A stretch of 64,000 nt of DNA from a virus. The stretch is taken from positions 13,633-77,632 of the IMG/VR virus record IMGVR_UViG_3300035670_008749; one strand, given 5' to 3'. Each line of letters begins with the position of its first letter. Within the stretch, counting starts at the first letter, position 1. Of the stretch, positions 10,153-39,548 are shown in pieces. The notes beneath the pieces are model-generated. The model did no database searches and was not told the DNA's origin. It saw only the letters and a program-made list of their open reading frames with translations. The translations under genes were made by a program, and so were the position numbers.

Positions 10153-10161
10153 TCTAACAAA

Positions 10162-23791: not shown

Positions 23792-23852
23792 TTATTATTA
23801 TATATAGAAAAACACTAAATTATTCACATAAAAAAAATATTTTTAAAAACCT

Positions 23853-23881
23853 GAAACTATCCTGCGAACGGGGACTAAAAT
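23853..23881 (+). promoter_or_regulatory. Bipartite promoter GAAACT-N17-TAAAAT for the glycan operon
   Basis: Only intergenic gap ahead of 19 co-oriented genes. Confidence 0.55.
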
Positions 23882-23929
23882 TTTTACGAAGTAAATCCCC
23901 GGCTATGAACACTATATTAATTTAATCCT

Positions 23930-24553
23930 ATGAGCCCCCAGTTTTTAGTTATAGCATATTACACAGAAAACACTTCGTACGAAGCACTCGCAGGCAATCT
24001 TAAAAGATCCCTGCAGAACTTTAGTTTGGCTCATTACATAGAGCCTATCAAAGATTTAGGATCTTGGGAAAAAAATACACATCACAAGGCTTATTTTATT
24101 AAAGAAATATTAGAGTCAAGAAACCAAGATGTTTTATATGTAGATGTAGATGCACAATTTAAATCTTATCCCGATCTTATTCCAAATCTTGACTGCGACA
24201 TAGCATACAGAACTCAAGATTTTAAATGGAGAGCAGATGAAGCTTTATCAGGTACATTATTCTTGAAAAACAATGATCGTGTGAGATCATTCGTTGATAG
24301 ATGGATAGAATTAAATGAAGCAACTCCAGCTGAAAGAATGAAGCCAGAAACATGGGAACAAAAAAATATGCAGAGGGCACATAGAGAAATGGAAGATCTT
24401 GTTTATTATAATCTTCCACCCGAATATACATTTATTTACGATCACATGCGTACGATGTATCCTCGTACGTCACCCGTCATAGAGCATTACCAGGAATCGA
24501 GAAATGTACACAGAAAAATGAATCAAAATTCTAATTTTAGAGTAAGAAGATAG
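23930..24553 (+). CDS. GT-A nucleotide-diphospho-sugar transferase
   Basis: VLYVDVDA DxD motif, LSGTLF, WEQ, LPPEY. Confidence 0.8.
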   Translation: MSPQFLVIAYYTENTSYEALAGNLKRSLQNFSLAHYIEPIKDLGSWEKNTHHKAYFIKEILESRNQDVLYVDVDAQFKSYPDLIPNLDCDIAYRTQDFKWRADEALSGTLFLKNNDRVRSFVDRWIELNEATPAERMKPETWEQKNMQRAHREMEDLVYYNLPPEYTFIYDHMRTMYPRTSPVIEHYQESRNVHRKMNQNSNFRVRR

Positions 24554-24554
24554 T

Positions 24555-25292
24555 ATGAAATTAGAATATGCTGTAGTTAGCTCTAACTCTAATCCTGAGT
24601 ATCTTGATTTTTGGCCATATGTAGCTAAGGCATGGAAGAATTTGATAGGATTAGAACCGGTTCTTCTTTATATAGACAATGCAGCACCCCCTGCTTGGGT
24701 TTATGAACACGGTAAGGTTTTTTATTTGGAATCAAGAAATGATTGGGACATTGCACAACAGGCACAATGTATTAGATTCTGGGCGGCAAACATACTGGAT
24801 AAGCCATTTATCATATCCGATATGGATATGCTCCCTATCTCCAAGGATTACTATATAAATCACGCTGAGTATATAGGAGACACTGGACTAATATCGTATA
24901 GTTCAGATATTATTAAATATAGATGGTATAGGACTAATCCACAATATCCAATGTGCTATCTTGCGGGAGATCCAAAAAGTTTTTCAGATCTTCTAGATTT
25001 GAATGAAGAAAGTCATTTGGATTTTCTTCTAAGATTGAAAAGAATGAATCTGCGAAGTGGGACTGATCAGAAGTTTTTTTATAATCAAACCCTAAGAAAA
25101 TCTGGATACTATATTAGACATCTTGAGAGAGGCTGGATAGAAGAAAAATATGCTACTGGTAGGTTGGATAAGGTAATATGGCCTAAAAACGACTATAATG
25201 CACACGAATATATAGATTGTCACTTACCAAGACCCTTATCGGCTAATCTTGGTATGTGTAAAGAATTATTTAATAAGCTTAAAATAGATTGA
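24555..25292 (+). CDS. Putative GT-A glycosyltransferase
   Basis: ISDMDMLP DxD motif, TDQ, DCHLPRP; operon context. Confidence 0.6.
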   Translation: MKLEYAVVSSNSNPEYLDFWPYVAKAWKNLIGLEPVLLYIDNAAPPAWVYEHGKVFYLESRNDWDIAQQAQCIRFWAANILDKPFIISDMDMLPISKDYYINHAEYIGDTGLISYSSDIIKYRWYRTNPQYPMCYLAGDPKSFSDLLDLNEESHLDFLLRLKRMNLRSGTDQKFFYNQTLRKSGYYIRHLERGWIEEKYATGRLDKVIWPKNDYNAHEYIDCHLPRPLSANLGMCKELFNKLKID

Positions 25293-26095
25293 TGAGATTA
25301 TCTATAATACTTCCAACAGGTGGAAATGATCATTTAAGAAATAGGAATTTTAATGAATGCTTATCTGCTATAAAGAATCAAACCTTTACTGATTACGAGG
25401 TAATAGTGGTGGAACAGGCATTAGATGGTAATTTTTATAAAAGAAGTAACCCTATAATACCATATAAGCACATAGCAATAAAAGACCCGCAAAACAGAGG
25501 ATTCAATCTTAGCTGGTGTAGAAACGTAGGAGCGAGAGAGGCTAATGGAGAGCTAATAGTTTTGATGGATTCAGACTTCGTGTTTGAAAATAATTATTTT
25601 ACAGTTATAAGCCAATTTGCAGGTGAATTTGCAGCAGGTGCAGAAACATACTATTGGTGTAATACCGAAGAGGCAACTATGGATTGGATTAGAACTAAAA
25701 ATTTTGATGTCTTTAGAAAAAGAGGAGGAGAGCCCAGGGATCCGGTATTTAAATTTAGATCAATGACTAGGGGATGTGGATTCGGAGCTATCTTGGTTTA
25801 TAACAAAGATTGGTTTTGGAACGTATTCGGTGGATATAACGAGAATTTCTTTAGGTATGGATGGGAAGATAAAGCAGCAACAGAAACAATAAAATTCTTG
25901 CTTAAAAGAAGTGACGAAACGATGGATAGGATTCCTTATGAAGCTGCACATTTAAGCCACAGGTCTAAGGATGTAAGAAATATTAATCTAAACGAAAAGC
26001 TTTTTAATGATTTTACTAATATGGATCAGAATGATTTAGTTAGTAAAATAAAGGAAGTAGGAGTAGGAAAAAAATCTAATCCGAGCACGATATGA
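25292..26095 (+). CDS. GT2/GT7-like glycosyltransferase
   Basis: VIVVEQ, FNLSWCRNVG, MDSD, GGYNENFFRYGWED. ATG overlaps the upstream TGA. Confidence 0.85.
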   Translation: MRLSIILPTGGNDHLRNRNFNECLSAIKNQTFTDYEVIVVEQALDGNFYKRSNPIIPYKHIAIKDPQNRGFNLSWCRNVGAREANGELIVLMDSDFVFENNYFTVISQFAGEFAAGAETYYWCNTEEATMDWIRTKNFDVFRKRGGEPRDPVFKFRSMTRGCGFGAILVYNKDWFWNVFGGYNENFFRYGWEDKAATETIKFLLKRSDETMDRIPYEAAHLSHRSKDVRNINLNEKLFNDFTNMDQNDLVSKIKEVGVGKKSNPSTI

Positions 26096-27012
26096 CAGAA
26101 AGAAGAAAAAGAAATATAACCCCGCAAGGATTTAAAAGAATATTAAATAGATTTCCTCCTGCTCCTTCCGTGGTAATAAAAAATAATGAAAATATATCTA
26201 ATAAAGAATTAGGTAATAAGAGTGAAGTAAATGTTGTACCTAAAGAAGAAAGAGATAACATGAATAATTATTATGAATTATATAATGACTATGAGGATGA
26301 TCCTAAAAAATATAATGTAAGTGTGGGATTTCTTATAGTAGCAACAGGAAAATATGATGTATTTATAGAGCCACTAATAAGATCAATAGAGAAATATTTT
26401 CTTCCTAATAACAAGAAGTTTTATAATATTTTTAGCGATAAGGATCTTTCATTTAAAAACATTGATTATTCTGTGTTTCCGGTGGAACATAAACCATTTC
26501 CTTACCCTACATTGTATAGATTTCACTTTTTTGAAAAATATAAAGAATCAATAAAAGGAGATCAACTTATTTATATAGATGCTGATACATTAATTACGTC
26601 ATCTATTGGAACAGAAGTTATAACACCTATTACTGTTACACAGCATTGCGGGTATGTTAATCGATGGGGGACTTTTGAAAATAGAACGGAGTCTAAATGC
26701 TTCGTTAGTAGAATGGATGGAAGAAATTATTATGGCGGGGGATTTTATTCGTTATCGAGAGACGAGTTTTTTAAGATGAGTTCGGAATGTAAAGAGATGA
26801 TAGATTGGGAATCTAATAAAGGGAGAGTACCTATTTGGCACGATGAATCTGCTTTAAATAAATATTTAACAATAGTAAAACCAACTAGGGTTCTTAGCCC
26901 TTCGTATCATTATCCGGAAGACAACCAAAAAATTTATTCATCGTGGGGGAACAATAAATTTGAATGTAAAATACTTTTATTAAACAAAGACCATAAAGAA
27001 ATAAGATCATGA
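26092..27012 (+). CDS. GT6 alpha-1,3-Gal/GalNAc transferase (ABO-type)
   Basis: IVATGKY, YIDAD, YYGGGF, WHDESALNKY, LSPSY, K-x-H-x-x-x-R C-terminus. Confidence 0.9.
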   Translation: MTERRKRNITPQGFKRILNRFPPAPSVVIKNNENISNKELGNKSEVNVVPKEERDNMNNYYELYNDYEDDPKKYNVSVGFLIVATGKYDVFIEPLIRSIEKYFLPNNKKFYNIFSDKDLSFKNIDYSVFPVEHKPFPYPTLYRFHFFEKYKESIKGDQLIYIDADTLITSSIGTEVITPITVTQHCGYVNRWGTFENRTESKCFVSRMDGRNYYGGGFYSLSRDEFFKMSSECKEMIDWESNKGRVPIWHDESALNKYLTIVKPTRVLSPSYHYPEDNQKIYSSWGNNKFECKILLLNKDHKEIRS

Positions 27013-27626
27013 GAATAGCATTAATATCTTTTCACAAAAACATAAGTAGATATCCCACAGAATGGATAGAAAAATACAGGGAATCAATAATAAATCAAAC
27101 GCATAAGGATTTTGATATATTTGAATTAAACTACGGTAATAGTGAGGAAAGAATATTTGAAAATAGTGAATTTATATCACTGAATCTTAATGATCATGCC
27201 CAAGCTCATAATTATCTGATTGAAAAATGCTTTAGTTTAAATTATGATATGGTATTAAATACCAATGTTGATGATCGATATCCATTAGACAGAGTAAAAA
27301 TACAGATAGATAATTTTAATCCCGAGATTTCTGTTATGTCTGGAAACTATGTTTCTTTTAGTGAAACAAGAGAAAATATACACTGTACAAAATTCCATGA
27401 GCTTGATATTTCTAAAGAATTTTTTAACAATCATAATATAGTTGCTCATCCTGCATGTGCTTATACTAAGAAAATGCTAGAATACAATGAAAAACTAATA
27501 TCTGAAGAAATTGCATCTGATGATTTTTGTATGTGGAAAAGGCTTTTATCCAAAGGGGCTAAATTTAAAATACTACCTAATGTACTTCTATACTATCGGA
27601 TAAGTGAACTTAAAACAAAATCGTAA
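27009..27626 (+). CDS. GT2-like glycosyltransferase
   Basis: SIINQT, NVDD, VAHPA, DDFCMW, LLYYR. Confidence 0.8.
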   Translation: MRIALISFHKNISRYPTEWIEKYRESIINQTHKDFDIFELNYGNSEERIFENSEFISLNLNDHAQAHNYLIEKCFSLNYDMVLNTNVDDRYPLDRVKIQIDNFNPEISVMSGNYVSFSETRENIHCTKFHELDISKEFFNNHNIVAHPACAYTKKMLEYNEKLISEEIASDDFCMWKRLLSKGAKFKILPNVLLYYRISELKTKS

Positions 27627-27629
27627 AAT

Positions 27630-28250
27630 ATGATAAACGATATATTCAAAGAAAATGTAAAAAAGTGGTTTAAAGATAAAGGTGATGTGTACAAAAGATT
27701 AGATTATCCAGAGTTAAATGAAAATTCCGTGGTATTTGATGTTGGTGGGTATTTGGGAACATTTGCCGAGTCTATTTATACTCGATACGGATCTAATATT
27801 TATTTATTTGAGCCTGTCGATGAGTTTTATCATGCTTGTAATTTTAAATTTAATCACCTTTCCAAGATAAGAAACTATAAGTTCGGTTTATCTAGTAATA
27901 ATACTATCTCTAATATTTATATTTCAGATGACGCTAGCTCTATCACGTATATAGATGATGCTAATATTGAATCTATAGAATTAAGGGATATAATAGAAGT
28001 AATAAGGGAATTAAATATAGATTCTGTTGATTTAATTAAGATTAACATAGAAGGTGAAGAATATAATCTATTAGAAAAACTCGTATCTGATGTGGATTTA
28101 TTAAAAAAAGTAAAAAATATACAAGTACAATATCACACTTTTATTCATGACGCAGAGGAAAGAAGAAAAAGCATAAATGAATCATTAAAAAATACCCACG
28201 AATGTACATGGTGCTATGATTGGGTTTGGGAGAACTGGAAATTAAAATAG
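27630..28250 (+). CDS. FkbM-family methyltransferase
   Basis: FDVGGYLG, FEP, IKINIEGEE. Confidence 0.88.
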   Translation: MINDIFKENVKKWFKDKGDVYKRLDYPELNENSVVFDVGGYLGTFAESIYTRYGSNIYLFEPVDEFYHACNFKFNHLSKIRNYKFGLSSNNTISNIYISDDASSITYIDDANIESIELRDIIEVIRELNIDSVDLIKINIEGEEYNLLEKLVSDVDLLKKVKNIQVQYHTFIHDAEERRKSINESLKNTHECTWCYDWVWENWKLK

Positions 28251-28251
28251 G

Positions 28252-28839
28252 ATGTTTTATTCACAAGCAGGACAGGATAAATGGGTTTTAGAAAAAACAA
28301 ATTCTAAAAAAAATGGATATTTTTTAGATATAGGTGCTTATGATGGAATTAATTATAGTAATACCTTATATTTTGAAAAGTATTTAAGTTGGAATGGTGT
28401 ATGTATAGAGCCAGATCTAAAAAATTATCAATTACTTGTTAAAAATAGGGACTGTATATGTGAAAACGTTGCAGTTAGCAATTTCAAAGGAAAAGTACCT
28501 TTTAGCAGTTCTGAAATGGGTAGCAAAATAAATGATTCCTATGATTATTTTATAGAATGTGATACACTAGAAAATATATTGATTAAAAATAATGCACCTC
28601 TATTTATAGATTATTTATCGATAGATGTTGAGGGTAGTGAGATAGCTATAATAGAAAATTTTCCTTTTAATAATTGGAAATTTGGAGCTATTACTATAGA
28701 GCATAATCTATATTCTGATGGTGACTATAGAAAAAAAGAAATACAAAAAATACTTACAAGTAACGGATATGTTATAGACAAAGAAAACGTAACTCATAAC
28801 GGTTTACCTTTTGAAGATTGGTACATCATTAAAAAATAA
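28252..28839 (+). CDS. FkbM-family methyltransferase
   Basis: YSQAGQD, LDIGAYDG, SNT, IEP, LSIDVEGSE. Confidence 0.9.
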   Translation: MFYSQAGQDKWVLEKTNSKKNGYFLDIGAYDGINYSNTLYFEKYLSWNGVCIEPDLKNYQLLVKNRDCICENVAVSNFKGKVPFSSSEMGSKINDSYDYFIECDTLENILIKNNAPLFIDYLSIDVEGSEIAIIENFPFNNWKFGAITIEHNLYSDGDYRKKEIQKILTSNGYVIDKENVTHNGLPFEDWYIIKK

Positions 28840-28841
28840 AT

Positions 28842-29747
28842 ATGAAATTTAAAAAAGTAGTAATATGGGGATACCCATTAGACACACATACTCATTCATA
28901 TATACATGCTTCATTTTATAAAGCTTTTAAAAGTTTAGGGTATGATACTTATTGGTTTACTGACGACAGATACGAGGACATAGGATTTGACGACTGTTTA
29001 TTTATTGCTGCAGGTGAACAAGAAAAAAATATACCTATTAATAAAAAATCTTATTATGTTTTACATAATGTTGATGGTAAAAAATATATCGACGCTGGAT
29101 GTAAAATATTAGTTCTACAGGTTCATACTAAAAAGGATGAATCATTTAAGAGTGAGGTAATAAACGATTATACTTTTATAAATAAAGATACAATTAATAC
29201 ACTATATACATGTTGGGCAACTGATCTATTGCCATCAGAGATAGATCTAGGACTTGCTAAAAATGTACAGAATCCCAAGAAATGTCTTTGGATAGGAACA
29301 TTCGGAGATTCTGTAGGTGTTTATCAGAATGGTACTGAATTAGATCCATTTTTTAATTCTTGTAAAGCAAACGGAATAGATGTTATTAAGATAAACCCAT
29401 GGTCATCCCCGGTTTCTTTTGAACAAAATATGGTTATGGTAAATTCATCGTACATCTCTCCTACTATACAAGGACCTTGGCAAATTGAGAACGAATATAT
29501 TCCTTGTAGGATATTTAAGAATCTATCTTACGGACATATGGGATATGTTAATTCACCTAGGGTTAATTCTTTATTTAGTAATGAACTTATATTCAGCAGA
29601 GATACCTCTGAGCTGTTTAATAAATCTATAGATTTTAAAAATTCCAATGATCATATTGAAAGATTAAAATATCTGATGAATGAGGTTAAAGAAAAGCACA
29701 CATATGTAAATAGAATAAAACAAATAATAGAATGCTTACCAGAGTAG
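28842..29747 (+). CDS. Putative GT-B glycosyltransferase (CgeB-like C-terminus)
   Basis: PCRIFKNLSYG and EKHTYVNRIKQI. Confidence 0.6.
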   Translation: MKFKKVVIWGYPLDTHTHSYIHASFYKAFKSLGYDTYWFTDDRYEDIGFDDCLFIAAGEQEKNIPINKKSYYVLHNVDGKKYIDAGCKILVLQVHTKKDESFKSEVINDYTFINKDTINTLYTCWATDLLPSEIDLGLAKNVQNPKKCLWIGTFGDSVGVYQNGTELDPFFNSCKANGIDVIKINPWSSPVSFEQNMVMVNSSYISPTIQGPWQIENEYIPCRIFKNLSYGHMGYVNSPRVNSLFSNELIFSRDTSELFNKSIDFKNSNDHIERLKYLMNEVKEKHTYVNRIKQIIECLPE

Positions 29748-30493
29748 ATAAAGCCTTATTATGTAAAGATTGTGATTCTCTAGATAGAGACTTAAATAGT
29801 GGAAATATAGTGGATAATTTCCAGATAATGCACAATGGAATAAAAATAATAAAGGACTGTTATTGTGGAGAATGGATGACTGAATTAATATTAAAATGTA
29901 AAGGACACCACGAACCACAGGAGGAGTTTGCTTTTTATAAAGTTTTAGAAAAAATAAAGGAAGGAGCATTAATGATAGAAGTTGGATCATCATGGTCTTA
30001 CTATTCTATGTGGTTTAATAAAAAAATAGAAGGAGCTAAAAATTTCATGATAGACGTGGATTCAATTAACCTTAATTTAGGTATAGAGAATTTTAAAATT
30101 AATAACATGAAAGGGAGATTTCATATAGGAAGAATACCAGAATTAAATATTTTAGATTTTATAAATCAAAATTCCATTGATTTTGTAGATATCCTTCATG
30201 TAGATATACAAGGATGGGAATATCATCTTCTGGAACAGCTTGGTGACTCTATAAAAAATATCGGATACATTTTTATATCTACTCACACTGATAAGAATAA
30301 TAATGGTAAAGATTGGGGAGCACCTAAAGAATTACTACACGAGGAATGCTTATCCTTTTTGATCGATAAAAAATTTAAAATACTGTGTGAACATGATATG
30401 AATGAATCATATTCACACGACGGATTAATAGTAGCTAGAAATCCAACCATAGATAATGATTTCTCTAAAATAAATATTTCAAAATATTGTTGA
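29732..30493 (+). CDS. FkbM-like methyltransferase
   Basis: HHEPQEE, IEVGS, LHVDIQGWE, ISTH. Confidence 0.8.
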   Translation: MLTRVDKALLCKDCDSLDRDLNSGNIVDNFQIMHNGIKIIKDCYCGEWMTELILKCKGHHEPQEEFAFYKVLEKIKEGALMIEVGSSWSYYSMWFNKKIEGAKNFMIDVDSINLNLGIENFKINNMKGRFHIGRIPELNILDFINQNSIDFVDILHVDIQGWEYHLLEQLGDSIKNIGYIFISTHTDKNNNGKDWGAPKELLHEECLSFLIDKKFKILCEHDMNESYSHDGLIVARNPTIDNDFSKINISKYC

Positions 30494-30495
30494 TT

Positions 30496-31194
30496 ATGAA
30501 TAAAATAGAATTGCTTGATAAGTACAAAGATTTATTAGATGGAGGATCTAATGAGGGATTAAGATATAATGATCCTGATAGATCGAGATATATGTCATTT
30601 AAACACTGCTTGGAATTTTTAAGTAAAAGGGATAATGCTGATGTATTAGAACTAGGTACTTCCAGAAGTTTTGTTGATGGTAAATTTGAAGGATGTAACA
30701 TGAATGACCCTAAATACTGGGATCCTAATGATTTCTCTAAGTGGGATTGGGGAGCTGGATGTTTTACATTAATATTCGGTACTATTGGTAATTATAATTC
30801 ATTTACCACTGTTGATTTAATTGAATCACATTTGAAAAGATGTAAGATAATGACAGATTCTTTAAATATTAAGTGTAATCATGTTACATCCGATTCCACA
30901 ATATATTTAGAAAACACTGATAAAAAATATGATCTTATATATTTAGATACTGGCGACATGTGGCCTATAGAATATACATGTAATCTACAACTAAAAGAAG
31001 CAGAAATCATAGTTCGTAGAGATCTTTTAAAAGAGGGTGGAATAATATTAATCGATGATGTATTAAATGGTACACCTAGAGAAATGGGAGATATAGACAA
31101 TAAATTAGGTAAATCTGAAGAATCAATACCCTACCTTGTTCAAAAAGGATATGATATAATATTCGAAGGATATCAATATATACTAAAAAAATAA
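30496..31194 (+). CDS. Class I SAM methyltransferase (Methyltransf_24-like)
   Basis: VLELGT, DLIYLD, LKEGGIILIDD. ATG 30496 preferred to TTG 30487. Confidence 0.8.
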   Translation: MNKIELLDKYKDLLDGGSNEGLRYNDPDRSRYMSFKHCLEFLSKRDNADVLELGTSRSFVDGKFEGCNMNDPKYWDPNDFSKWDWGAGCFTLIFGTIGNYNSFTTVDLIESHLKRCKIMTDSLNIKCNHVTSDSTIYLENTDKKYDLIYLDTGDMWPIEYTCNLQLKEAEIIVRRDLLKEGGIILIDDVLNGTPREMGDIDNKLGKSEESIPYLVQKGYDIIFEGYQYILKK

Positions 31195-31198
31195 AAAA

Positions 31199-31831
31199 AT
31201 GACAAATTACAATTTTACAGCTACACAGGACTGGCATTTTTACTTTTCTAAAATATTTGAAACTACTAAGATAGCAAATATGTTAGAATTTGGATTAGGA
31301 GTGGGCACACCATACCTAGCAGATAACTGCGAATATTTAAAATCAGTCGAACTATCTCTAGGATCTTATAATTTAGAGTGGTATCAACAAACACTAGAAA
31401 AAATGAAGGATCGAAAAAATTGGGATTGTGTTTATGTGGAAGTCAATCAAAATATAGTACAGGCTAATGAGAATGCACAAAGATTAAGATTTCCTTTAGC
31501 AGATACTAATTATCTTAATGACCTTAGTGAATTGGTTTTGCCTTTTATGTCAGATAGAAAATATGACTTTATATTTGTAGACGCGGGAATACACACAAGA
31601 GGAGATCTAGTAAATTTATCTTTTCATAAAGCTGATATAATTGCAGCACATGACACGAGTAGGGATACTAATAGAGTTTTAAAAAATGTCTATGGATATA
31701 ACATAGTAAAAGTTCCAGCTGATTACGAAGAAATACATTTTGAAGATACGTATATGGGCACTACAATCTGGGTTAAAAATGACAGAGTAGATCTAATAAA
31801 TATTTTAAGAAACTATAAAGTAAATCAATGA
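31199..31831 (+). CDS. Class I SAM methyltransferase
   Basis: MLEFGLGVGT, YDFIFVD, AHDT. Confidence 0.7.
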   Translation: MTNYNFTATQDWHFYFSKIFETTKIANMLEFGLGVGTPYLADNCEYLKSVELSLGSYNLEWYQQTLEKMKDRKNWDCVYVEVNQNIVQANENAQRLRFPLADTNYLNDLSELVLPFMSDRKYDFIFVDAGIHTRGDLVNLSFHKADIIAAHDTSRDTNRVLKNVYGYNIVKVPADYEEIHFEDTYMGTTIWVKNDRVDLINILRNYKVNQ

Positions 31832-32799
31832 GAATCTTACACGTAACATATCATTCAGGGTGTGTTATATCTGTGGATTATATTTGTAATAAGCTCGGAT
31901 ATCATTTAGAAACCCAAAGAGCTAATTGGAATTATAATATTTCTCAAGACCTTGCTGATAATATATGGAATCAAAACAGGGATTACTACAATTCTTTCGA
32001 TTGTGTTATTACCTCAGATACCGCGCCTCTTTCTAGAATATTTCTTAGAGAACAGTTCAGAGGAAAATTAATAATCTGGGTGTGTAATAGATTTGATTAC
32101 AACGACGGAGCAACTAATTCGGTAAATTTTCCAGATCCCGGTTATTATGACATATTCAAGTCTGCTCTCAATAGGCCTAATACCATTATTAGATCCTATA
32201 CAAAATTTGAACACGAATATGCTAAAAAGTACAGAGGCATAGAATGGGATCCCGAAGTTTTTAGACCTGTTAGTATTGTTGAGAAAATTGCTAAGTCTGA
32301 ATTTTTCCCTAGCGGACAAAAAAAGAGTGACACCTTTTTAATAACCAGATATCACAACGATAATATTTATATGGATCTTAAAGGAGTTTGCGATAAATTA
32401 GGTATACCTACATACAGAGGGGAATATAATGGACCTTCGGATCTTATAGGGATAAGAGGTATAATACACATTCCGTATGCCTGGTCTAATCTAGCGATCT
32501 TTGAAAATTGGTCTATCGGTAATGTTTACTTTATACCATCTAAAAAATTCTTATTAGATCTTTCGTGTCAATCTAATTTTTTCTGGAGCCCCCCGTTTGA
32601 TAGGGGATATATTGAATCTTCCGAATGGTATTTACCCGAGCACAATGATTTATTTATTTACTTTAATTCTTTTGATCATCTGGTAGAATTAACTAAAAAT
32701 AATGAATTGATAGAAAAGAAAAGAAACAATATTATAAATTTCAGTAAGATCCATGAGGGGAAATGTATTTCTCAGTGGAAAGATATAATTGAAAGATGA
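31828..32799 (+). CDS. Putative glycosyltransferase
   Basis: MRILHV start, HIPYAWSNLAIFE; operon context. Confidence 0.5.
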   Translation: MRILHVTYHSGCVISVDYICNKLGYHLETQRANWNYNISQDLADNIWNQNRDYYNSFDCVITSDTAPLSRIFLREQFRGKLIIWVCNRFDYNDGATNSVNFPDPGYYDIFKSALNRPNTIIRSYTKFEHEYAKKYRGIEWDPEVFRPVSIVEKIAKSEFFPSGQKKSDTFLITRYHNDNIYMDLKGVCDKLGIPTYRGEYNGPSDLIGIRGIIHIPYAWSNLAIFENWSIGNVYFIPSKKFLLDLSCQSNFFWSPPFDRGYIESSEWYLPEHNDLFIYFNSFDHLVELTKNNELIEKKRNNIINFSKIHEGKCISQWKDIIER

Positions 32800-33542
32800 T
32801 AACGTTTTCTAGAATTGGATCCTTCGGTAGATTGGGTAACCAGATGTTCCAAATAGCAGCAGCAATAGGACTTGCAGAAAGAAATAATGATATTGCTTTT
32901 TTTAATAAATGGGAATACTCTAAATATTTCAAAATCCCCATAAATCAAAATCTAGATCGGAATAATATAAAGAAAGTTTTCAACGAGAGAGGATTTCATT
33001 ACTCTCCTATACCTTATTATAACGGGACAGATTTGGTTGGATATTTCCAGTCCGAAAAGTATTTTATAGATGCTATTGAAACTGTTAAAAAACACTTTGA
33101 TTTTATAGATGAACTGCACGATGGTACTATAGAAAGTAATAAGGAAACTTGTTCCATACACGTAAGGAGAGGTGATTATTTAAATATTACTGAATATCAT
33201 CCTGTACAAGATATGCAGTATTATAATAAAGCTATTGATCACATGAGAGGGAGAGGTGTAAATCTTTTCTACGTTTTTTCTGATGATGTTGATTGGTGTA
33301 AAAAAAACTTTCCTATCGATGATAGTATTAAATATGTACAGGGAAATATAGACGTAAAGGATTTGTGTCTTATGTCCTCTTGTAAAAATAATATAATAGC
33401 TAATTCTAGTTTTTCTTGGTGGGGTGCTTGGCTAAACAAGAATCCAAATAAAATTGTGATAGCACCCGAAAGATGGTTTGGTCCAGCTAAAAGAGGTACT
33501 ATACTTGATGATTTATATTGCGAAAGCTGGCTAAAATTCTAA
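32796..33542 (+). CDS. GT11 alpha-1,2-fucosyltransferase
   Basis: GRLGNQMFQ, GYFQSEKYF, HVRRGDY, FSDD, ANSSFSWWGAWL. Confidence 0.93.
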   Translation: MITFSRIGSFGRLGNQMFQIAAAIGLAERNNDIAFFNKWEYSKYFKIPINQNLDRNNIKKVFNERGFHYSPIPYYNGTDLVGYFQSEKYFIDAIETVKKHFDFIDELHDGTIESNKETCSIHVRRGDYLNITEYHPVQDMQYYNKAIDHMRGRGVNLFYVFSDDVDWCKKNFPIDDSIKYVQGNIDVKDLCLMSSCKNNIIANSSFSWWGAWLNKNPNKIVIAPERWFGPAKRGTILDDLYCESWLKF

Positions 33543-33546
33543 AAAA

Positions 33547-34485
33547 ATGAAAAAAATACTTATTCTTGGTTCTAATGGATTGGTTGGATCTAATCTATAT
33601 AAAAAATATATAGAAAAATATCCTGATGCTAGTGTTTTAGCACCGAAGAGATATAATCTAAATTTAACTTCTTGGAAGGATACAATAGATTACTTTTTGA
33701 CTCACAAACCGGATGTTGTTTTTCTTTGTGCAGCTAAGGTGGGAGGAATAAAAGCCAATAACGATAATAAAGCTACTTTTATAACTACTAACCTAAAAAT
33801 ACAAACCAATGTTATCGAATCCTGTCATTTATCTGGGGTTAAAAAATTGGTCTTTCTAGGATCTTCCTGCATATATCCAAAAAATTGTCCGCAGCCTATA
33901 AAGGAAGAATATCTTTTGACTGGTCCTTTAGAAGAAACAAACGATGCTTATGCTATAGCTAAGATTGCTGGTATTAAGATGTGTCAATCATACAGACAAC
34001 AATACGGAACTGATTATATCTCTGTTATGCCTTGTAATCTTTATGGTCCAGGTGATAATTTTGATCTTAATACGTGTCACGTTCTTCCGGCTTTAATTAG
34101 GAAATTTCATGAGGCTAAAAAAAATAATCTCCCCGAAGTTGAAGTGTGGGGGACAGGAAAACCGATGAGGGAATTTTTATATGTCGAAGATTTAGTAGAA
34201 GCTCTTATTTATTTGTCAGAAAATTATTCTTCGGGTGAAATAATAAATGTTGGTTCTGGTGAGGATATCTCAATATCAGATCTTTCTAATACTATAGCTA
34301 AAGTTGTTGGATATAATGGAGCTATAAGATTTAATACTGAATATCCGGATGGGACTTATCGTAAAGTTATGGATGTTTCTCGAATCACTGAAACCGGATG
34401 GAAGCCTTCTACTACAATAGATGAGGGGATTAAAAAAACTTATGAATACTATAAAAATACAATATGCCGATTAGAAAAGCAATAA
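33547..34485 (+). CDS. fcl: GDP-L-fucose synthase
   Basis: GSNGLVG, AAKVGGI, LGSSCIYP, YAIAK, PCNLYGP, WGTG..REF. Confidence 0.95.
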   Translation: MKKILILGSNGLVGSNLYKKYIEKYPDASVLAPKRYNLNLTSWKDTIDYFLTHKPDVVFLCAAKVGGIKANNDNKATFITTNLKIQTNVIESCHLSGVKKLVFLGSSCIYPKNCPQPIKEEYLLTGPLEETNDAYAIAKIAGIKMCQSYRQQYGTDYISVMPCNLYGPGDNFDLNTCHVLPALIRKFHEAKKNNLPEVEVWGTGKPMREFLYVEDLVEALIYLSENYSSGEIINVGSGEDISISDLSNTIAKVVGYNGAIRFNTEYPDGTYRKVMDVSRITETGWKPSTTIDEGIKKTYEYYKNTICRLEKQ

Positions 34486-35486
34486 TAACTGGCGTCAATG
34501 GACAAGATGGTAGTTATCTTGCGGAGCTGCTTTTAGAAAAAGGATACAAAGTACATGGAACAATACGAAGATCCTCGTCTTTTAATACATGGAGAATAGA
34601 TCATCTCAGAAAAAATCCAATGTTTAAGTGGCACTACGCTGATGTTACGGATCCAGTATCGATTAGTAATCTAATATCAACAATTAAACCTGACGAATTT
34701 TACAACTTGGCTGCTCAAAGTCATGTGAAGATCTCTTTTGAAATCCCTTATTATACTGGACAAGTAGATGCTATAGGAACTTTAAACGTTTTAGAGTCAA
34801 TAAGAACTCATTCACCAAAGACTAAACTATATCAAGCATCGACATCTGAGCTTTATGGCAAAGTACAGGAAATACCTCAAACAGAAAAAACTCCTTTTTA
34901 TCCAAGAAGTCCTTACGGGGTTGCTAAACTTTACGGATTTTGGATTATAAAAAACTACAGAGAAGCTTACAACATCTTTGCATGTAATGGTATTCTCTTT
35001 AATCATACATCTCCCAGAAGGGGCGAGAATTTTGTAGAGAAGAAGATTGTTGATGGATTAGTTGACATTAAACTAGGTAAATCTGATATTTTAAAATTAG
35101 GTAACTTAAATTCATCAAGAGATATTGGACACGCTAAAGAATATGTTGAAGGTATGTGGAGGATGCTACAGCAGGAACATCCGAGGGACTTTGTTCTTGC
35201 AACAGGTGTTACATATACAATAAAAGAAATTGTAGAAATGACCTCTTTAAAGTTGGGAATGGAAATAGAATTTACGGGAAAAGAAGAGGAAGAGATTGGT
35301 AGAATAAAAGAAACCGGAAGAAGAATAATTGAGGTGGATCCTAAATATTTCAGACCATCAGAGGTTGATCTATTAATTGGTGATGCTACTGAGGCAAAAA
35401 AAAATCTAGGATGGGAACCTAAGCTTTCCCTTTCTAATATAATAGATGAAATGATAGAAGATAAAATAAAATCTTATGGACTATAA
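34464..35486 (+). CDS. gmd: GDP-mannose 4,6-dehydratase
   Basis: ITGVNGQDGSYL, LAAQSHV, QASTSELYG, PRSPYGVAK. Confidence 0.96.
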   Translation: MPIRKAIITGVNGQDGSYLAELLLEKGYKVHGTIRRSSSFNTWRIDHLRKNPMFKWHYADVTDPVSISNLISTIKPDEFYNLAAQSHVKISFEIPYYTGQVDAIGTLNVLESIRTHSPKTKLYQASTSELYGKVQEIPQTEKTPFYPRSPYGVAKLYGFWIIKNYREAYNIFACNGILFNHTSPRRGENFVEKKIVDGLVDIKLGKSDILKLGNLNSSRDIGHAKEYVEGMWRMLQQEHPRDFVLATGVTYTIKEIVEMTSLKLGMEIEFTGKEEEEIGRIKETGRRIIEVDPKYFRPSEVDLLIGDATEAKKNLGWEPKLSLSNIIDEMIEDKIKSYGL

Positions 35487-36054
35487 TCTATTAATAGAAA
35501 AAGAGATAGAAGCTCTAAGAAAAATACCAGTCGAAAGGGTTGAGGATATTATTAGACACATACATTGGAATTTAACGTCTGGTAGGATAATTACTTCTGG
35601 GATGGGCAAAGCTGGTCAGATAGCTCATACTTTTGCAACAACTCTTTCTTCTACGGGAACCCCAGCTTTCTTTTTACACCCCTCAGAAGCTCAACATGGA
35701 GATTTGGGAATAATACAACCTGGTGATATAATTATAGTTTTTAGTAATTCGGGTAAGACTAGAGAGGTTATAGAACTAATAGATCTAATCCATAATCTGG
35801 GATACAACAATTACATATACGCTATCGTTGGAACCAAAACCCAAGATATCTCTATAAAATGTGCAGACTACATTGAATTTGGTCCTGTTGAGGAAATATG
35901 TCCGATGGGATTAACCCCAACAACTTCAACAACATGTATGTCTGTTATATCTGATCTAATCGTAGTTGGTCTGATGAAAAAAAATAGTTTTAATAAAGAA
36001 AAATACTCAAAGCTTCACCATGGTGGATATCTCGGTCAGAAATCAAAAAACTAG
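35476..36054 (+). CDS. kdsD: Arabinose-5-phosphate isomerase, SIS domain only
   Basis: SGMGKAG, STGTPAFFLHPSEAQHGDLG, SNSG, PTTST, HHGG; no CBS domains. Confidence 0.9.
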   Translation: MDYNLLIEKEIEALRKIPVERVEDIIRHIHWNLTSGRIITSGMGKAGQIAHTFATTLSSTGTPAFFLHPSEAQHGDLGIIQPGDIIIVFSNSGKTREVIELIDLIHNLGYNNYIYAIVGTKTQDISIKCADYIEFGPVEEICPMGLTPTTSTTCMSVISDLIVVGLMKKNSFNKEKYSKLHHGGYLGQKSKN

Positions 36055-36823
36055 GATTCTTATAGGAGGTCCTTGCGTTATACAAAGCTGGGACACGTGT
36101 TTTGAGGTAGCAACAGAGGTTAGGAGATGTGGACTTCTTCATAATTTCCAAACAATATTTAAAGCAAGTTTTGATAAGGCTAATAGAACATCTACTGATG
36201 GCTTTAGAGGGATAGGCATAGATAAGGGTTTAGAAGTGCTAAGAAATATAAAATCTCGTTTAAACATAGACATAATAACAGACGTTCATGAAACTAATCA
36301 GGTTGAAAGGGTGGCTTCTGTTGTAGATTATTTACAGATCCCAGCATTTCTATGTAGACAAACAGATCTTATAGAAGCTTGCGCTAAAACTGGTTTACCG
36401 GTTTTAATTAAAAAGGGACAATTTCTTTCTCCTGAATCTTGCAAATTCATAGAGGATAAATTTTATAATTTCGGCGGTAAAGAGTTAATGATAGGGGAAA
36501 GAGGAAATACCTTTGGATACAATGATCTAGTAGTAGACGCCACTTCAATATCAAGGTTAAAAAAATCATGCGAAAGATCTAAAATAATTATGGACTGTAC
36601 ACACAGTTTGCAAAGACCTAACGGGATAAACGGAAAAACAGAAGGAAGAGGAGAAATGATAGAAGATATGGTTAAGTTTGCTTCTGTTATGGATGCAGAT
36701 GGATTATTTATAGAAACCCATCCTTATCCAAGCCTTTCACCTTCCGATTCAGAAAATATGCTGGAACTTAATAAATTGGAGGGAATAATTAAAAAATCTA
36801 GATTAATATATGACACCCACTAA
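36020..36823 (+). CDS. kdsA: KDO8P synthase, metal-dependent type
   Basis: GPCVI, ASFDKANRTS, TDVHE, QIPAFLCRQTDL, KKGQF, ERG, FIETHP. Confidence 0.93.
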   Translation: MVDISVRNQKTRILIGGPCVIQSWDTCFEVATEVRRCGLLHNFQTIFKASFDKANRTSTDGFRGIGIDKGLEVLRNIKSRLNIDIITDVHETNQVERVASVVDYLQIPAFLCRQTDLIEACAKTGLPVLIKKGQFLSPESCKFIEDKFYNFGGKELMIGERGNTFGYNDLVVDATSISRLKKSCERSKIIMDCTHSLQRPNGINGKTEGRGEMIEDMVKFASVMDADGLFIETHPYPSLSPSDSENMLELNKLEGIIKKSRLIYDTH

Positions 36824-37520
36824 ATTACTAGATATTGTTATAATTAGCTATGCTAATGACGATTATTGTAAGAATCTTACTAAGAGCTGTATAACATCTA
36901 TATTAAACTCCGAGAGTAATGCTATTAAAGATTTTAATATTATAGTGGTAGAATCTGAACCTGGGGTTAAATGGGAAGATTTAGCTGAAAATGTAAAAAC
37001 CTACCAAGCTCCTCTTCCTTATGGATATCACAAATTTTTAAATTTTGGTAGGAAACAAGGAAATTCCCCGTGGGTTGCTCTTTGTAATAACGACCTTGAA
37101 TTTACACAGGGATGGTTTACTAGAATACTAGAAGCTTCTTCTACAGTTCCTGAAGCACTTTCTTTTTCTCCTTTATGTCCTAAGACCCAAACTCTTTACG
37201 GGATAAATGAAAACATGGGACTTATTGAAGGATATGAAATAAGAAAACAAATTTCAGGCTGGTGTATAATACACAAAAGAGAAATTTATGAAAAGATAGG
37301 AGACCTAGATGAAAGATTTCATCATTGGTTCTGTGATAATGATTACTCAATGGAACTAATGAAAAATAAAATTAAACACGTTTTAGTTACTAATTCAGTT
37401 GTGGTGCACCACGATAAAAACATAGGGAAGACAACAGAAAGAGTGATCAAAGATTATAATTTAATGCACAAAATGACTAGCGGATCTTATCCGTTATTTA
37501 AGGAAAAATGGAACTTATAA
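36810..37520 (+). CDS. GT2 glycosyltransferase
   Basis: CNND, IGDLDERF..WFCDNDY. Confidence 0.85.
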   Translation: MTPTKLLDIVIISYANDDYCKNLTKSCITSILNSESNAIKDFNIIVVESEPGVKWEDLAENVKTYQAPLPYGYHKFLNFGRKQGNSPWVALCNNDLEFTQGWFTRILEASSTVPEALSFSPLCPKTQTLYGINENMGLIEGYEIRKQISGWCIIHKREIYEKIGDLDERFHHWFCDNDYSMELMKNKIKHVLVTNSVVVHHDKNIGKTTERVIKDYNLMHKMTSGSYPLFKEKWNL

Positions 37521-37530
37521 AAATATAAAT

Positions 37531-38151
37531 ATGACTAGATACGACATAATAAACAGAATTATTGAAAATAGGGGATATAAAAATTATCTCGAGATAGGGG
37601 TAAGAGATGGCGAATGTTTTAAAGAAGTTTGTTGTGAAAATAAAACAGGGGTAGATCCTGCTCCAACATCTTCTGATACCACTCATATAATGACATCAGA
37701 TTCTTTCTTTAGTTCTCTTGATCCAGAGCAAAAGTTTGATATCATTTTTATTGATGGATTGCATTTAGAACATCAAGTAGATAAAGATATTGAAAACTCT
37801 TTAAATTATCTATCTGAGGGTGGTACTATTGTTTTACACGACTGTAATCCCCCGACTAAATTTCATACGGAGGAGAGACCGGTTTTTACTGCTCCTGCAA
37901 ACGGGAATTGGAACGGAACGGTATATCTTTCTTTAGTAAAATTAAGACTTTATAGAAACGATCTAAAATTAGTAACTGTTGACACTGATTGGGGGGTAGG
38001 AATACTAACTAGAGATGCTAGCGAAACTATTGACGTATTTCCTAGCGAGGCTACAACATGGGATTTTTTCACATTAAATAGACATAGCGTATTAGATTTA
38101 ATATCTCCCGAGGAATTTGAAGAAAATTATCCCGTTTATAAAACGGAATAA
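37531..38151 (+). CDS. Class I SAM methyltransferase (Methyltransf_24)
   Basis: YLEIGV, GVDP, FDIIFIDGLH, GGTIVLHD. Confidence 0.88.
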   Translation: MTRYDIINRIIENRGYKNYLEIGVRDGECFKEVCCENKTGVDPAPTSSDTTHIMTSDSFFSSLDPEQKFDIIFIDGLHLEHQVDKDIENSLNYLSEGGTIVLHDCNPPTKFHTEERPVFTAPANGNWNGTVYLSLVKLRLYRNDLKLVTVDTDWGVGILTRDASETIDVFPSEATTWDFFTLNRHSVLDLISPEEFEENYPVYKTE

Positions 38152-38154
38152 TTC

Positions 38155-38183
38155 GAAATTATTTATGAGTCATAACCTATAAA
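38155..38183 (+). promoter_or_regulatory. Bipartite promoter GAAATT-N17-TATAAA
   Basis: Intergenic, 7 nt before ATG 38191. Confidence 0.6.
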
Positions 38184-38190
38184 ATATAGT

Positions 38191-38451
38191 ATGAATCTGG
38201 AAGAGGGTTTTAAAATGGTTATTTCTAGAGAAAAAGGTAAAGCTTATGTAGAAATAACTAGACACAAAGAGTCCTATATGAGCAACATACTTATAATAAA
38301 TAGCTTCGGCAGTAAAAGATATGAAGAAACTTGGATAATAGAAAAAGATTTAGATGCCTGGATTTCTTCTTTAGCAAGGGAAGGATTCACAAAGATAAAA
38401 ACTATAGAAGATGTGGAGTCTCCTAAAAAAAGTACTAAAAAGAAAAAATAA
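38191..38451 (+). CDS. Hypothetical protein
   Basis: 86 aa ORF directly after a promoter. Confidence 0.6.
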   Translation: MNLEEGFKMVISREKGKAYVEITRHKESYMSNILIINSFGSKRYEETWIIEKDLDAWISSLAREGFTKIKTIEDVESPKKSTKKKK

Positions 38452-38455
38452 TAAT

Positions 38456-39037
38456 ATGGAAAACATAGAAGAGATAGATGTCGAGTTTCTTGACAGGGAA
38501 CTTAAACCTTTTCTTTATAAATGGGCTAAGGGGGACAATTCAGGTACTGTTTGTGAATATGAAAGTGTATTTAAAGATCCAACTACAGGAATAATCTGGA
38601 TAAATTTTAAAGGAGGAACTAGAATAAATTATGCTCTACTTAATGAGTATATGATGCAAATAGATTCTTCTTCTATAGTTCATAATGAACCGGTAGCGCA
38701 AAACAATAACCTACCAGTTAAAAATGTAATGCTTTCTGAATCTAAAGCTAAGGTTCCAGATTTAGAAAATCCCATAGTTTCTCTTTTACAAAAACAAAAA
38801 CCAAACTGGGTAGAGGTTGGAATTAATCTTAAACTAAATCTCCCCACTAAAAATCTTTATAATGTTCTAACATCATCTTTTGATGATGCAGAGGAGGAAA
38901 TTATAGAGTTTGTTGTTAGAGATTTAGATATTGAAATAATAAAAGAGAGCCTGAGGATAAATATAAAGGATATATATAAATCAAATGGAACTTTACGAAA
39001 AGGCGGAACAATCAGTAATACAAAAAACGAGGAATAG
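38456..39037 (+). CDS. Hypothetical protein
   Basis: ATG 38456 avoids the overlap implied by the track start at 38411. Confidence 0.65.
   Translation: MENIEEIDVEFLDRELKPFLYKWAKGDNSGTVCEYESVFKDPTTGIIWINFKGGTRINYALLNEYMMQIDSSSIVHNEPVAQNNNLPVKNVMLSESKAKVPDLENPIVSLLQKQKPNWVEVGINLKLNLPTKNLYNVLTSSFDDAEEEIIEFVVRDLDIEIIKESLRINIKDIYKSNGTLRKGGTISNTKNEE
38969..38976 (+). promoter_or_regulatory. Late promoter GATATATA inside the upstream gene
   Basis: 8 nt before NUDIX ATG 38985. Confidence 0.55.
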
Positions 39038-39548
39038 AGAGGTCGTAGAAATAGATGGACATCTATTTATTAGACAGATAAATCCTGGGGTTATTATAAT
39101 GCCCTACACTTTAAATGAAGAGGGATTTCCGTTTAAAATAGGAATCATATCTGAAGTATTGGATCAACGTCCAGGAGGAATGGCAAAAACTCTAATAACT
39201 GGCTCGCAAGACGATAAAGATTCTAACATATACCAAACAGCTGTTAGAGAAATGGAAGAGGAATCGGGGTTCCTAGTCGAGGATCTTAAAAGATGGCAGT
39301 TCTTAGGGAGTTTATATACATCAAAAATGGTAATTAATTCTAATCCATGTTTTGCTGTGAATATTACCGGATTAGTTTCGGGAGAAAAAAAGACAGATGG
39401 CTCTAAATCTGAGAAAGACACTAAGTTTGAACTTGTATCTATAGATGAGGCTCTAAATTTAGAGGATTCTTTAGTTAGTACACTATTCATAAAAACATTC
39501 AAAGACATTTTTAACAGTAAAGAGGAAGAAGATGAATCTACCAAATAG
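38985..39548 (+). CDS. NUDIX hydrolase
   Basis: GSQDDKDSNIYQTAVREMEEESG Nudix box. Confidence 0.8.
   Translation: MELYEKAEQSVIQKTRNREVVEIDGHLFIRQINPGVIIMPYTLNEEGFPFKIGIISEVLDQRPGGMAKTLITGSQDDKDSNIYQTAVREMEEESGFLVEDLKRWQFLGSLYTSKMVINSNPCFAVNITGLVSGEKKTDGSKSEKDTKFELVSIDEALNLEDSLVSTLFIKTFKDIFNSKEEEDESTK

Follow-up and report, generated by a model that had tools for sequence, protein, structure and literature searches.

The DNA analysed here (the window, 64,000 nt) is positions 13,633 to 77,632 of the IMG/VR viral record IMGVR_UViG_3300035670_008749, a 77.6-kb contig that is rated 26% complete by CheckV and hence points to a genome of about 300 kb. It contains an operon of about 22 co-directional genes on the + strand (23930-39548), all for soluble proteins, with genes for a glycosyltransferase of family 6 (GT6), a GT11 α-1,2-fucosyltransferase and the two enzymes of GDP-L-fucose synthesis, Gmd and Fcl. 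From the family assignments and conserved residues described below, the operon is probably a cytoplasmic kit for making a methylated, fucosylated glycan with a blood-group A-type cap, carried by a freshwater jumbo phage of about 300 kb. Its features are as follows (genes are referred to below by their first position).

23792..23929, + strand: leader/promoter region, the 138 nt preceding the first gene, with motif ATATATAGAA at 23800-23809
23930..24553, + strand: possible GT-A nucleotide-diphospho-sugar transferase, weak (PF03407, E 0.0015, 19 bits versus a cut-off of 22)
24555..25292, + strand: virus-specific hypothetical protein, GT8-like lead only (no Pfam match; viral GT8/Nucleotid_trans clusters of the ESM Atlas, 0.94)
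25289..26095, + strand: GT2-family glycosyltransferase (PF00535, E 1.4e-9; PHROG 'galactosyl transferase', 7.5e-6)
26092..27012, + strand: GT6 α-1,3-galactose/N-acetylgalactosamine (Gal/GalNAc) transferase, DXD type (PF03414, E 8e-28)
27009..27626, + strand: GT2-like GT-A glycosyltransferase, partner of GT6 (AlphaFold2 model of mean predicted local distance difference test (pLDDT) 92, and Foldseek)
27630-28250 and 28252-28839, + strand: two FkbM-type S-adenosylmethionine (SAM) methyltransferases (PF05050, E 1e-7 and 7e-15)
28842..29747, + strand: compact GT-B fold glycosyltransferase, family undefined (AlphaFold2 model of pLDDT 90, and Foldseek)
29732..30493, + strand: FkbM-like methyltransferase, C-terminal half (PF05050, E 3.8e-5, 24.3 bits versus a cut-off of 22.7)
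30487..31194, + strand: faint methyltransferase-like signals (Spermine_synth and Methyltransf_24, E 0.03-0.09; phrog_24975, function unknown)
31199..31831, + strand: probable class I SAM methyltransferase, Methyltransf_24-like (family-invariant motifs EFGLGxG and FVDAGIH)
31828..32799, + strand: conserved viral protein, function unknown (at least 870 homologous clusters)
32796..33542, + strand: GT11 α-1,2-fucosyltransferase (PF01531, E 2e-34; phrog_2644, E 3e-59)
33547..34485, + strand: GDP-L-fucose synthase Fcl (NF047922, E 1.9e-128, 428 bits)
34464..35486, + strand: GDP-mannose 4,6-dehydratase Gmd (TIGR01472, E 7.7e-149, above cut-off)
35476-36054, + strand: KdsD-like, SIS-only arabinose-5-phosphate isomerase (KpsF/GutQ and KdsD models)
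36020-36823, + strand: 3-deoxy-D-manno-octulosonate (KDO)-8-phosphate synthase KdsA (NF003543, E 1e-93, above cut-off)
36810-37520, + strand: weak GT2-like protein (PF00535, E 9e-5, 22.9 bits versus a cut-off of 23.3)
37531-38151, + strand: Methyltransf_24 methyltransferase (PF13578, E 8e-11)
38191..39548, + strand: two open reading frames (ORFs) of unknown kind, then a NUDIX hydrolase at 38985-39548 (PF00293, E 1.8e-5, 25.2 bits versus 21.1)

Up to 37531 successive genes overlap or are separated by at most 10 nt; the last four show one gap of 39 nt and overlaps of 41-53 nt, and the whole is bounded by gaps of 138 and 157 nt. The original prediction had placed a phage operon at 26092-35486: the operon is real, its extent was too short, since the co-directional run continues on both sides. 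The tally is of at least six glycosyltransferases (25289, 26092, 27009, 28842, 32796 and 36810) plus three leads (23930, 24555 and 31828), and of four methyltransferases supported by Pfam (27630, 28252, 29732 and 37531) plus two weaker ones (31199 and 30487). The G+C content is 28.5-29% in the glycosyltransferase/methyltransferase stretch (26-32 kb) versus 32-35% on both flanks.

The presence of gmd, fcl, GT11 and GT6 genes in one operon, as had been claimed, was borne out by strong family matches (TIGR01472, NF047922, PF01531 and PF03414). The GT11 protein scored 119.5 bits against PF01531 (cut-off 23.9) and possesses the motifs HVRRGDY, i.e. the HxRRxD GDP-fucose motif, and SSFSWWGAWL; its sequence matched no solved structure. 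The match of the GT6 protein to PF03414 (97.5 bits, cut-off 25) covered profile positions 71-312 of 313, and among solved structures it matched best BoGT6a of Bacteroides ovatus (PDB 4AYJ/4AYL; E 1.4e-28), followed by human ABO (about 1e-25) and bovine α3GalT (1e-13).

Residues D163-A164-D165 (DAD) of the phage GT6 align column by column with N95-A96-N97 of BoGT6a, which confirms the earlier observation of DAD in the phage enzyme and NXN in the bacterial one, and D163 and D165 are invariant among 20 GT6 relatives. The catalytic motif WHDE (249-252) is the counterpart of Trp189-His-Asp-Glu192 of BoGT6a. E252, K299 and R305 are invariant in the family alignment; from that alignment and from the C-terminus of the human A transferase (GTA), we take K299 and R305 to correspond to Lys359 and Arg365 of α3GalT (Lys231 in BoGT6a for the former). 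As to the contacts made by BoGT6a with UDP and the donor, Ile8, Thr10 and Tyr13 are matched by V83, T85 and Y88, and Thr70 and Arg73 by T140 and R143; for the acceptor contacts, His122 and Gly124 correspond to H185 and G187, Thr134 to T194 and Tyr153 to Y213. The BoGT6a contacts kept are therefore Tyr13, Thr70, Arg73, His122, Gly124, Thr134, Tyr153, Trp189, His190, Asp191 and Glu192, and His185, Gly187, Thr194, Tyr213, Trp249 and Glu252 of the phage enzyme are the equivalents of those used by BoGT6a and GTA to bind 2'-fucosyllactose.

A published analysis split GT6 into three clades, including a 'minimal catalytic domain, DXD' clade (Thiyagarajan et al. 2012, PMC3516806); DXD defines the clade formed by the enzymes of phage P-SSM2 and of Parachlamydia (PMC3516806). 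Because this clade is already published, a phage GT6 with DXD is what one would expect and no anomaly. The A/B-like logic of the original prediction thus holds at the sequence level, given the 2'-fucosyl acceptor residues and the GT11 linkage; what does not hold is that the DXD motif is in itself remarkable. The characterized DXD enzyme PaGT6 needs Mn or Mg to transfer GalNAc, for which it accepts H trisaccharide or 2'-fucosyllactose and rejects N-acetyllactosamine (PMC3516806). Acceptance of 2'-fucosylated galactose by GTA, GTB (the human B transferase) and BoGT6a is made possible by His122, a small residue at 124 and a residue other than Trp at position 'A7', where α3GalT has Gln, Trp and Trp, respectively (PMC3516806). 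In the phage enzyme the family alignment puts Leu296 at 'A7', where the Trp of α3GalT shuts fucose out, three residues N-terminal of the invariant Lys299; with H185, G187 and L296, we infer that it fits the A/B-synthase-like subgroup using Fuc-α1,2-Gal (Fuc, fucose) acceptors. The donor-specificity motif is G215-G-G-F, to be compared with AGGL (Ala155-Gly-Gly-Leu) in BoGT6a and LGGF in GTA, and there is a Gly where GTA has Gly and GTB has Ala. Because GGGF resembles the GTA and BoGT6a motifs, an A-type cap is likelier than a B-type one, i.e. the donor is more likely UDP-GalNAc than UDP-Gal.

The same features were sought in other viral GT6 loci. A single-sequence GT6 scan of viral contigs found nothing; a profile scan of IMG/VR then gave 61 loci, which together with P-SSM2 and a 642-kb megaphage make up a set of 63. 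All 63 enzymes have D-x-D and 59 have an xGGF or xGGV donor motif, with Gly at the GTA-Gly/GTB-Ala position; the fucose-permissive His is kept in all aligned sequences. In 47 loci a GT11 gene is found no more than 10 kb from GT6, often abutting it; this is a lower bound because many loci reach a contig edge. A gmd-like gene is present in 24. Among 50,697 deposited phage records, GT6 was found in 72 and GT11 in 103, almost all of them cyanophages or uncultured huge phages. A DXD GT6, with DVD and YVAGGF, is also encoded on a contig (L051, IMGVR_UViG_GVMAG-M-3300027797-21_000001) labelled as a giant-virus metagenome-assembled genome (MAG).

These data bear on the possibility that the phage GT6 makes no A/B epitope, either because it uses another acceptor or another UDP-sugar or because GT11 fucosylates a separate branch. 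Thirteen other genes stand between the GT6 and GT11 genes in the operon, 16 of the 63 loci have no GT11 within 10 kb, and Gly215 is unlike the residue of every characterized enzyme. Against this, many of the GT11-less loci are truncated by the end of their contig, the GT6 and GT11 genes are immediate neighbours in many loci, the fucose-compatible residues are conserved, and PaGT6, the sole DXD prokaryotic GT6 to have been assayed, needs a fucosylated acceptor (PMC3516806). On balance, a product of another kind is unlikely.

The GT6 has an N-terminal extension of about 75 amino acids, made of a short basic motif of the R-x-L-V-N-R-F-x-P-P type, a linker rich in Asn and Ser, and a conserved segment with YYxL. 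It is clade-specific, being common to relatives with 55-78% identity, so that the upstream start codon is probably genuine. It might tether the enzyme to the membrane or bind it to a partner protein; the motif was found in none of the other operon proteins. Close relatives of this GT6 are encoded on metagenomic contigs of up to 347 kb.

Two glycosyltransferase genes flank that of GT6. The preceding one (25289-26095), previously taken for a putative 'GT7-like' β-galactosyltransferase, lies just before the start given earlier (26092) and proved to be of the GT2 type: of the two GT7 Pfam models, 7N and 7C, only Glyco_transf_7C appeared, with 19.8 bits for a cut-off of 23, and the relatives in the PDB are generic GT2 enzymes. 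The following one, 27009, has no Pfam match; its AlphaFold2 model matched 6p61 (a Leptospira glycosyltransferase), SpsA, K4CP and WrtF in Foldseek (E 1e-11 to 1e-9, TM-score about 0.7), and an NTNxDD motif is invariant in its family. A homologue was found in 21 of the 63 viral GT6 loci, next to GT6 in 11 of the 21. In two loci (L003 and L043) and two metagenomic proteins (P0050 and P0110), the GT2-like domain is fused in frame with GT6, which suggests that the two enzymes carry out consecutive steps.

The whole operon is present in the same gene order in a sister phage (locus L004), on a contig of 153 kb that is 53% complete. Most proteins are 78-94% identical between the two phages, the outliers being GT6 (61%), GT11 (60%) and 31199 (66%). 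Altered specificity motifs in the diverged GT6 were considered and ruled out, all the key motifs being identical to those of the window enzyme. The sister also has an extra gene for a polysaccharide pyruvyl transferase of 431 amino acids (L004 15034-16329, PF04230, E 1e-6), which is absent from the window and stands between the homologues of 30487 and 31199. Given this indel and the divergence of GT6, GT11 and 31199, the structure of the glycan probably differs between close relatives. The last three operon proteins (38191..39548) are all kept in the sister phage.

The other members of the operon are less easily named. For 24555, the likeness to GT8 is a lead only, because just 139 features are shared with the nearest named clusters of the ESM Atlas; no paralogy was detectable between 23930 and 24555. 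Comparison of 31199 with the methyltransferase 37531 by hhalign gave a probability of 67% (E 5e-5), and no Pfam match was found for the 31199 family with 58 homologues. The 31828 protein (323 amino acids) belongs to a family of at least 870 clusters (clustering at 90% identity), whose members share 45-84% identity with it and lie on contigs of up to 462 kb; no Pfam domain was found in any of these clusters, and the ESM Atlas yielded viral hypothetical clusters only. An identical copy of the protein is encoded on a contig of 159.6 kb. It is more conserved than the glycosyltransferases next to it. Several operon proteins belong to virus-only families that giant viruses share. The sequence of the NUDIX protein has no match in the PDB, so that a role as GDP-mannose hydrolase is a guess. 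The KpsF/GutQ and KdsD models match the KdsD-like protein with their SIS part only (positions 48-201 of 328). The KDO pathway is incomplete: of KdsD, KdsA, KdsC, KdsB and WaaA, only this protein and KdsA are present. KdsB (PF02348), WaaA (PF04413) and a ManC-type nucleotidyltransferase were not found in this contig or in the 153-kb sister contig.

The model of the GT-B protein 28842, a homologue of which adjoins GT6 in 8 viral loci, matched T4 DNA α-glucosyltransferase (AGT), Gtf3, OtsA and PimA (E about 1e-5). T4 AGT being the top match, the glycosyltransferases might be thought to act on DNA, i.e. to decorate hydroxymethylated bases and so block host nucleases, all the more as the sister contig ends in a gene of the thymidylate synthase family (G001:C1:152814-153314, locus L068; PF00303, E 2e-36), which may code for ThyA or for a pyrimidine hydroxymethylase. 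However, the similarity to T4 AGT is generic for GT-B enzymes (8% identity, with an E-value equal to that of many unrelated ones) and the acceptor residues of GT6 suit a fucosyl-galactoside. We know of no precedent for GT6, GT11, GDP-fucose or KDO enzymes acting on DNA. DNA hypermodification is for us a very improbable explanation.

No transmembrane-like segment was detected in any operon protein (no hydrophobic 19-mer above 1.4 on the Kyte-Doolittle scale). Nor was there, in the operon, any Pfam match to a priming transferase, a flippase or ABC exporter, or a polymerase or ligase, so that it lacks what defines a self-sufficient O-antigen or capsule locus. More generally, no large polytopic protein of the flippase/polymerase type was found among the 1266 ORFs around the 63 viral GT6 genes. 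With no membrane component of its own, the phage would have the chain built either on a host lipid carrier, with export to the envelope by the host, or directly on phage proteins.

The pathway that we propose is the following. On the basis of family assignments, Gmd and Fcl would make GDP-L-fucose from the GDP-mannose of the host, more KDO-8-phosphate would be supplied by KdsD and KdsA, and the host would be left with the activation and transfer of KDO and with the supply of UDP-Gal and UDP-GalNAc. The 27009 GT2-like enzyme would probably add a β-linked Gal, GT11 would then add Fuc in α-1,2, and the metal-dependent DXD GT6 would add GalNAc (less likely Gal) in α-1,3, to give the A-type trisaccharide GalNAc-α1,3(Fuc-α1,2)Gal-R. 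The remaining glycosyltransferases would build the underlying chain, and the methyltransferases presumably O-methylate it. The three-enzyme core (GT2-like, GT11 and GT6) is deduced from conserved residues together with gene linkage.

Several points weigh against this scheme. Donor and acceptor specificities are predicted from a handful of residues, and the first residue of the donor motif, Gly215, has no precedent among characterized GT6 enzymes. That 27009 is a Gal transferase is a guess made by analogy with Escherichia coli O86 (see below). Fcl, with its 428 bits (E 1.9e-128), is below the 500-bit cut-off of the NCBIfam equivalog. Finally, the absence of priming, export and CMP-KDO genes holds for fragments only, the two contigs being 26% and 53% complete.

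The operon is a new example, from a different phage lineage, of a known phage cluster of DXD GT6, GT11 and GDP-fucose genes, first seen in the Prochlorococcus phage P-SSM2. There (PSSM2_257-271), as here, co-directional genes code for a GDP-mannose dehydratase, fcl-like epimerase/reductases, GT2 enzymes, GT11 and a DXD GT6, and the window operon, with its gmd, fcl, GT11 and DXD GT6 genes, is a cluster of the P-SSM2 type. The identity between the two is 56% for Gmd, 51% for Fcl and 33% for both GT6 and GT11. Unlike P-SSM2, the window phage is of a Lak/Flavobacteriia type from freshwater and the subsurface and has its operon inside the structural block; the operon further comprises four to six methyltransferases, KdsD/KdsA, the GT2-like partner of GT6 and the basic N-terminal extension of the latter. 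Other cyanomyovirus clusters (such as that of S-SCSM1) contain gmd, fcl, an α-1,2-fucosyltransferase and a NUDIX GDP-mannose hydrolase (PMC9602691). What is new here is the DXD motif in every viral GT6 locus of the set, the linkage to GT11 in 47 of them, the GT2-like neighbour or fusion, and the fact that GT6 and GT11 are the most diverged proteins in the sister phage.

Among characterized enzymes, PaGT6 of Parachlamydia acanthamoebae resembles the phage GT6 in its DXD, its xGGF-type donor motif and its lack of a C-terminal BHB membrane domain; the phage GT6, known from its sequence, differs by its 75-amino-acid N-terminal extension and by a donor motif that begins with Gly rather than with Ala or Leu. 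BoGT6a has NAN instead of the DAD of the phage enzyme, is metal-independent and possesses a C-terminal BHB domain that the phage enzyme lacks. In the O-antigen cluster of E. coli O86, wbnJ (a GT2 β-1,3-galactosyltransferase), wbnK (GT11) and wbnI (GT6) produce a blood-group-B-like unit. The likeness lies in the GT2, GT11, GT6 order of action and in the GDP-fucose genes of the cluster; the O86 cluster, however, has wzx and wzy and depends on a priming transferase, whereas the phage operon has no membrane component. The chlorovirus PBCV-1 has its own GMD and GMER, soluble glycosyltransferases and a sugar methyltransferase domain. Mycobacteriophage virions are glycosylated at the C-termini of capsid and tail-tube proteins (cited in PMC12619734), and the glycosyltransferase genes of these phages lie beside structural genes. 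Common to these viral systems and the window are soluble glycosyltransferases of viral origin, GDP-fucose synthesis and sugar methylation without export genes. GT6 and GT11 form no part of the PBCV-1 and mycobacteriophage systems, which act on virion proteins, while that of the window is known from its genes alone.

That the DNA is from a phage, as had been stated, is supported by its IMG/VR origin and by genes for a prohead protease and major head protein (8062-11940) and for baseplate proteins (46810 onwards). The major head protein shares 42% identity with that of an uncultured 462-kb phage and 38% with that of the Prevotella Lak megaphages; further matches are to jumbo phages of Tenacibaculum, Chryseobacterium and Flavobacterium, and not to T4-like phages. 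From these relatives, the phage is a large one of Bacteroidota type and not a cyanophage. Near-identical DNA was found in metagenomes of about ten studies, of freshwater, riverine and subsurface origin, and a near-identity search of the operon against the 50,697 phage records gave no match. The freshwater jumbo-phage lineage of the 'moraphages' (25 published genomes of 200-307 kb, with predicted Flavobacteriia hosts) has four glycosyltransferase groups in at least 80% of its genomes, i.e. as near-core functions (PMC12619734). The size of about 300 kb, the freshwater/subsurface habitat and the Lak/Flavobacteriia-type head protein of the window phage agree with this lineage, a likeness that is circumstantial.

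The motif found in the leader of the operon, ATATATAGAW, is a candidate phage promoter element. It occurs seven times in the window (5392, 8668, 12016, 23800, 25208, 33606 and 56242), always on the + strand, versus 2.0 expected, and none of 100 shuffles reached seven; most copies are 14-130 nt 5' of a start codon. It precedes head-region genes (5445 and 12039) and a gene beside those of the baseplate (56256), and lies 130 nt 5' of the operon and 81 nt 5' of the GT2 gene 25289. The last two copies are kept in the sister phage, that of the leader at the matching position (L004 7674). If the motif is a late promoter, the operon would be co-expressed with the structural genes. A looser form, (G)ATATATA(G/A), is present 13-23 nt before several other starts. 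A sigma-70 promoter scan showed no enrichment (95 versus 101.8 expected), and neither did terminators (5 versus 7.7 expected).

Where would the glycan go? We slightly favour its display on the envelope of the infected cell over glycosylation of the virion, while putting the former at just short of an even chance. Envelope glycolipids are where KDO genes typically belong, seroconverting phages provide a precedent, and peripheral glycosyltransferases normally work on lipid-linked intermediates exported by host machinery. For the cyanophage clusters too, the role proposed is at the host surface, as a change directed against other phages or grazers, which is hypothesised only (PMC9602691). In the case of virion glycosylation, which we hold to be a serious possibility somewhat below even chances, the soluble enzymes would build the glycan in the cytoplasm on capsid, decoration or fibre proteins, and the resulting coat would protect the particle against lectins, grazers, non-specific adsorption or recognition by the host. 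The location of the operon, between the protease/major head protein genes and the baseplate genes and on the same strand, argues for it, but may reflect plain synteny. The strand-specific ATATATAGAW motif before both head/baseplate genes and operon, with its position kept in the sister, points the same way, but the promoter nature and late timing of the motif are themselves something we infer. These two features fit the virion at least as well as the envelope and so count against our preference. Also in line with virion glycosylation are the lack of any membrane protein, priming transferase or exporter, and of polytopic proteins in the wider survey, the number of transferases and methyltransferases, which suggests a complete glycan made de novo, and the origin of several operon proteins in the virus-only families mentioned above. 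On the other side, no acceptor protein or initiating protein-glycosyltransferase was identified, and the KDO genes would be more at home with envelope glycolipids. The near-core glycosyltransferases of the similar freshwater lineage and the mycobacteriophage precedent (PMC12619734) are further points in its favour, limited by the circumstantial character of the likeness to moraphages. Beyond envelope, virion and DNA, the remaining probability goes to other destinations.

As to a possible substrate in the virion, the gene at 14827-16848, after the head genes, codes for a 673-amino-acid protein with about 20 Ser in 30 residues (residues ~370-400), i.e. a poly-Ser tract in the head region; its identity with the sister's version is just 39%, versus 92% for the major head protein. 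The protein may have a decoration or fibre role and be a target of O-glycosylation. The (GTS)n tail of 46810 was also considered as a glycosylation tail and dropped, the protein being a baseplate hub/spike homologue.

A broader reading, to which we give tentative credit only, combines these elements: the glycan would be a heavily O-methylated, A-capped coat on the capsid or fibres of the virion, and the diverged GT6, GT11 and 31199 alleles together with the pyruvyl-transferase indel would represent glycan 'serotypes' under diversifying selection. The triad would be mobile, with a GT2-like/GT11/DXD-GT6 cassette common to cyanomyoviruses, jumbo phages, 640-kb megaphages and a giant-virus MAG.

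Human ABO blood groups are owed to the GT6 family. Its distribution is patchy, which has prompted a published proposal that vertebrates took the enzyme over from a prokaryote or phage with a GT6 of the DXD type. Large freshwater phages of Lak/Flavobacteriia type also carry the full A-type toolkit, so that it is not limited to marine cyanophages, and a viral GT6 that is always DXD and usually linked to GT11, as in our 63 loci, widens the reservoir for gene movement. The three-enzyme cassette (GT2-like, GT11 and GT6), with its first and last members sometimes fused, constitutes a concrete, testable unit. Were the product to prove a component of the virion, it would rank among the few cases of a tailed phage with a complex, methylated coat of glycan. 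As matters stand, the result enlarges a familiar theme without starting a new one.

Two minor observations concern the surroundings of the operon start. The 5' leader (23840-23929) matched no Rfam family; it is conserved in the sister phage (L004 7715-7805), with a hairpin CCUG-CGAA-CGGG in the window and CCUG-CAUA-CAGG in the sister, where a U-G pair becomes U-A. The proteins encoded 5' of the operon at 22112-22516 and 22513-23070 have similar N-termini, MPRILKIDNF and MRRIFSFDQF, perhaps a peptide for targeting or docking that the two have in common.

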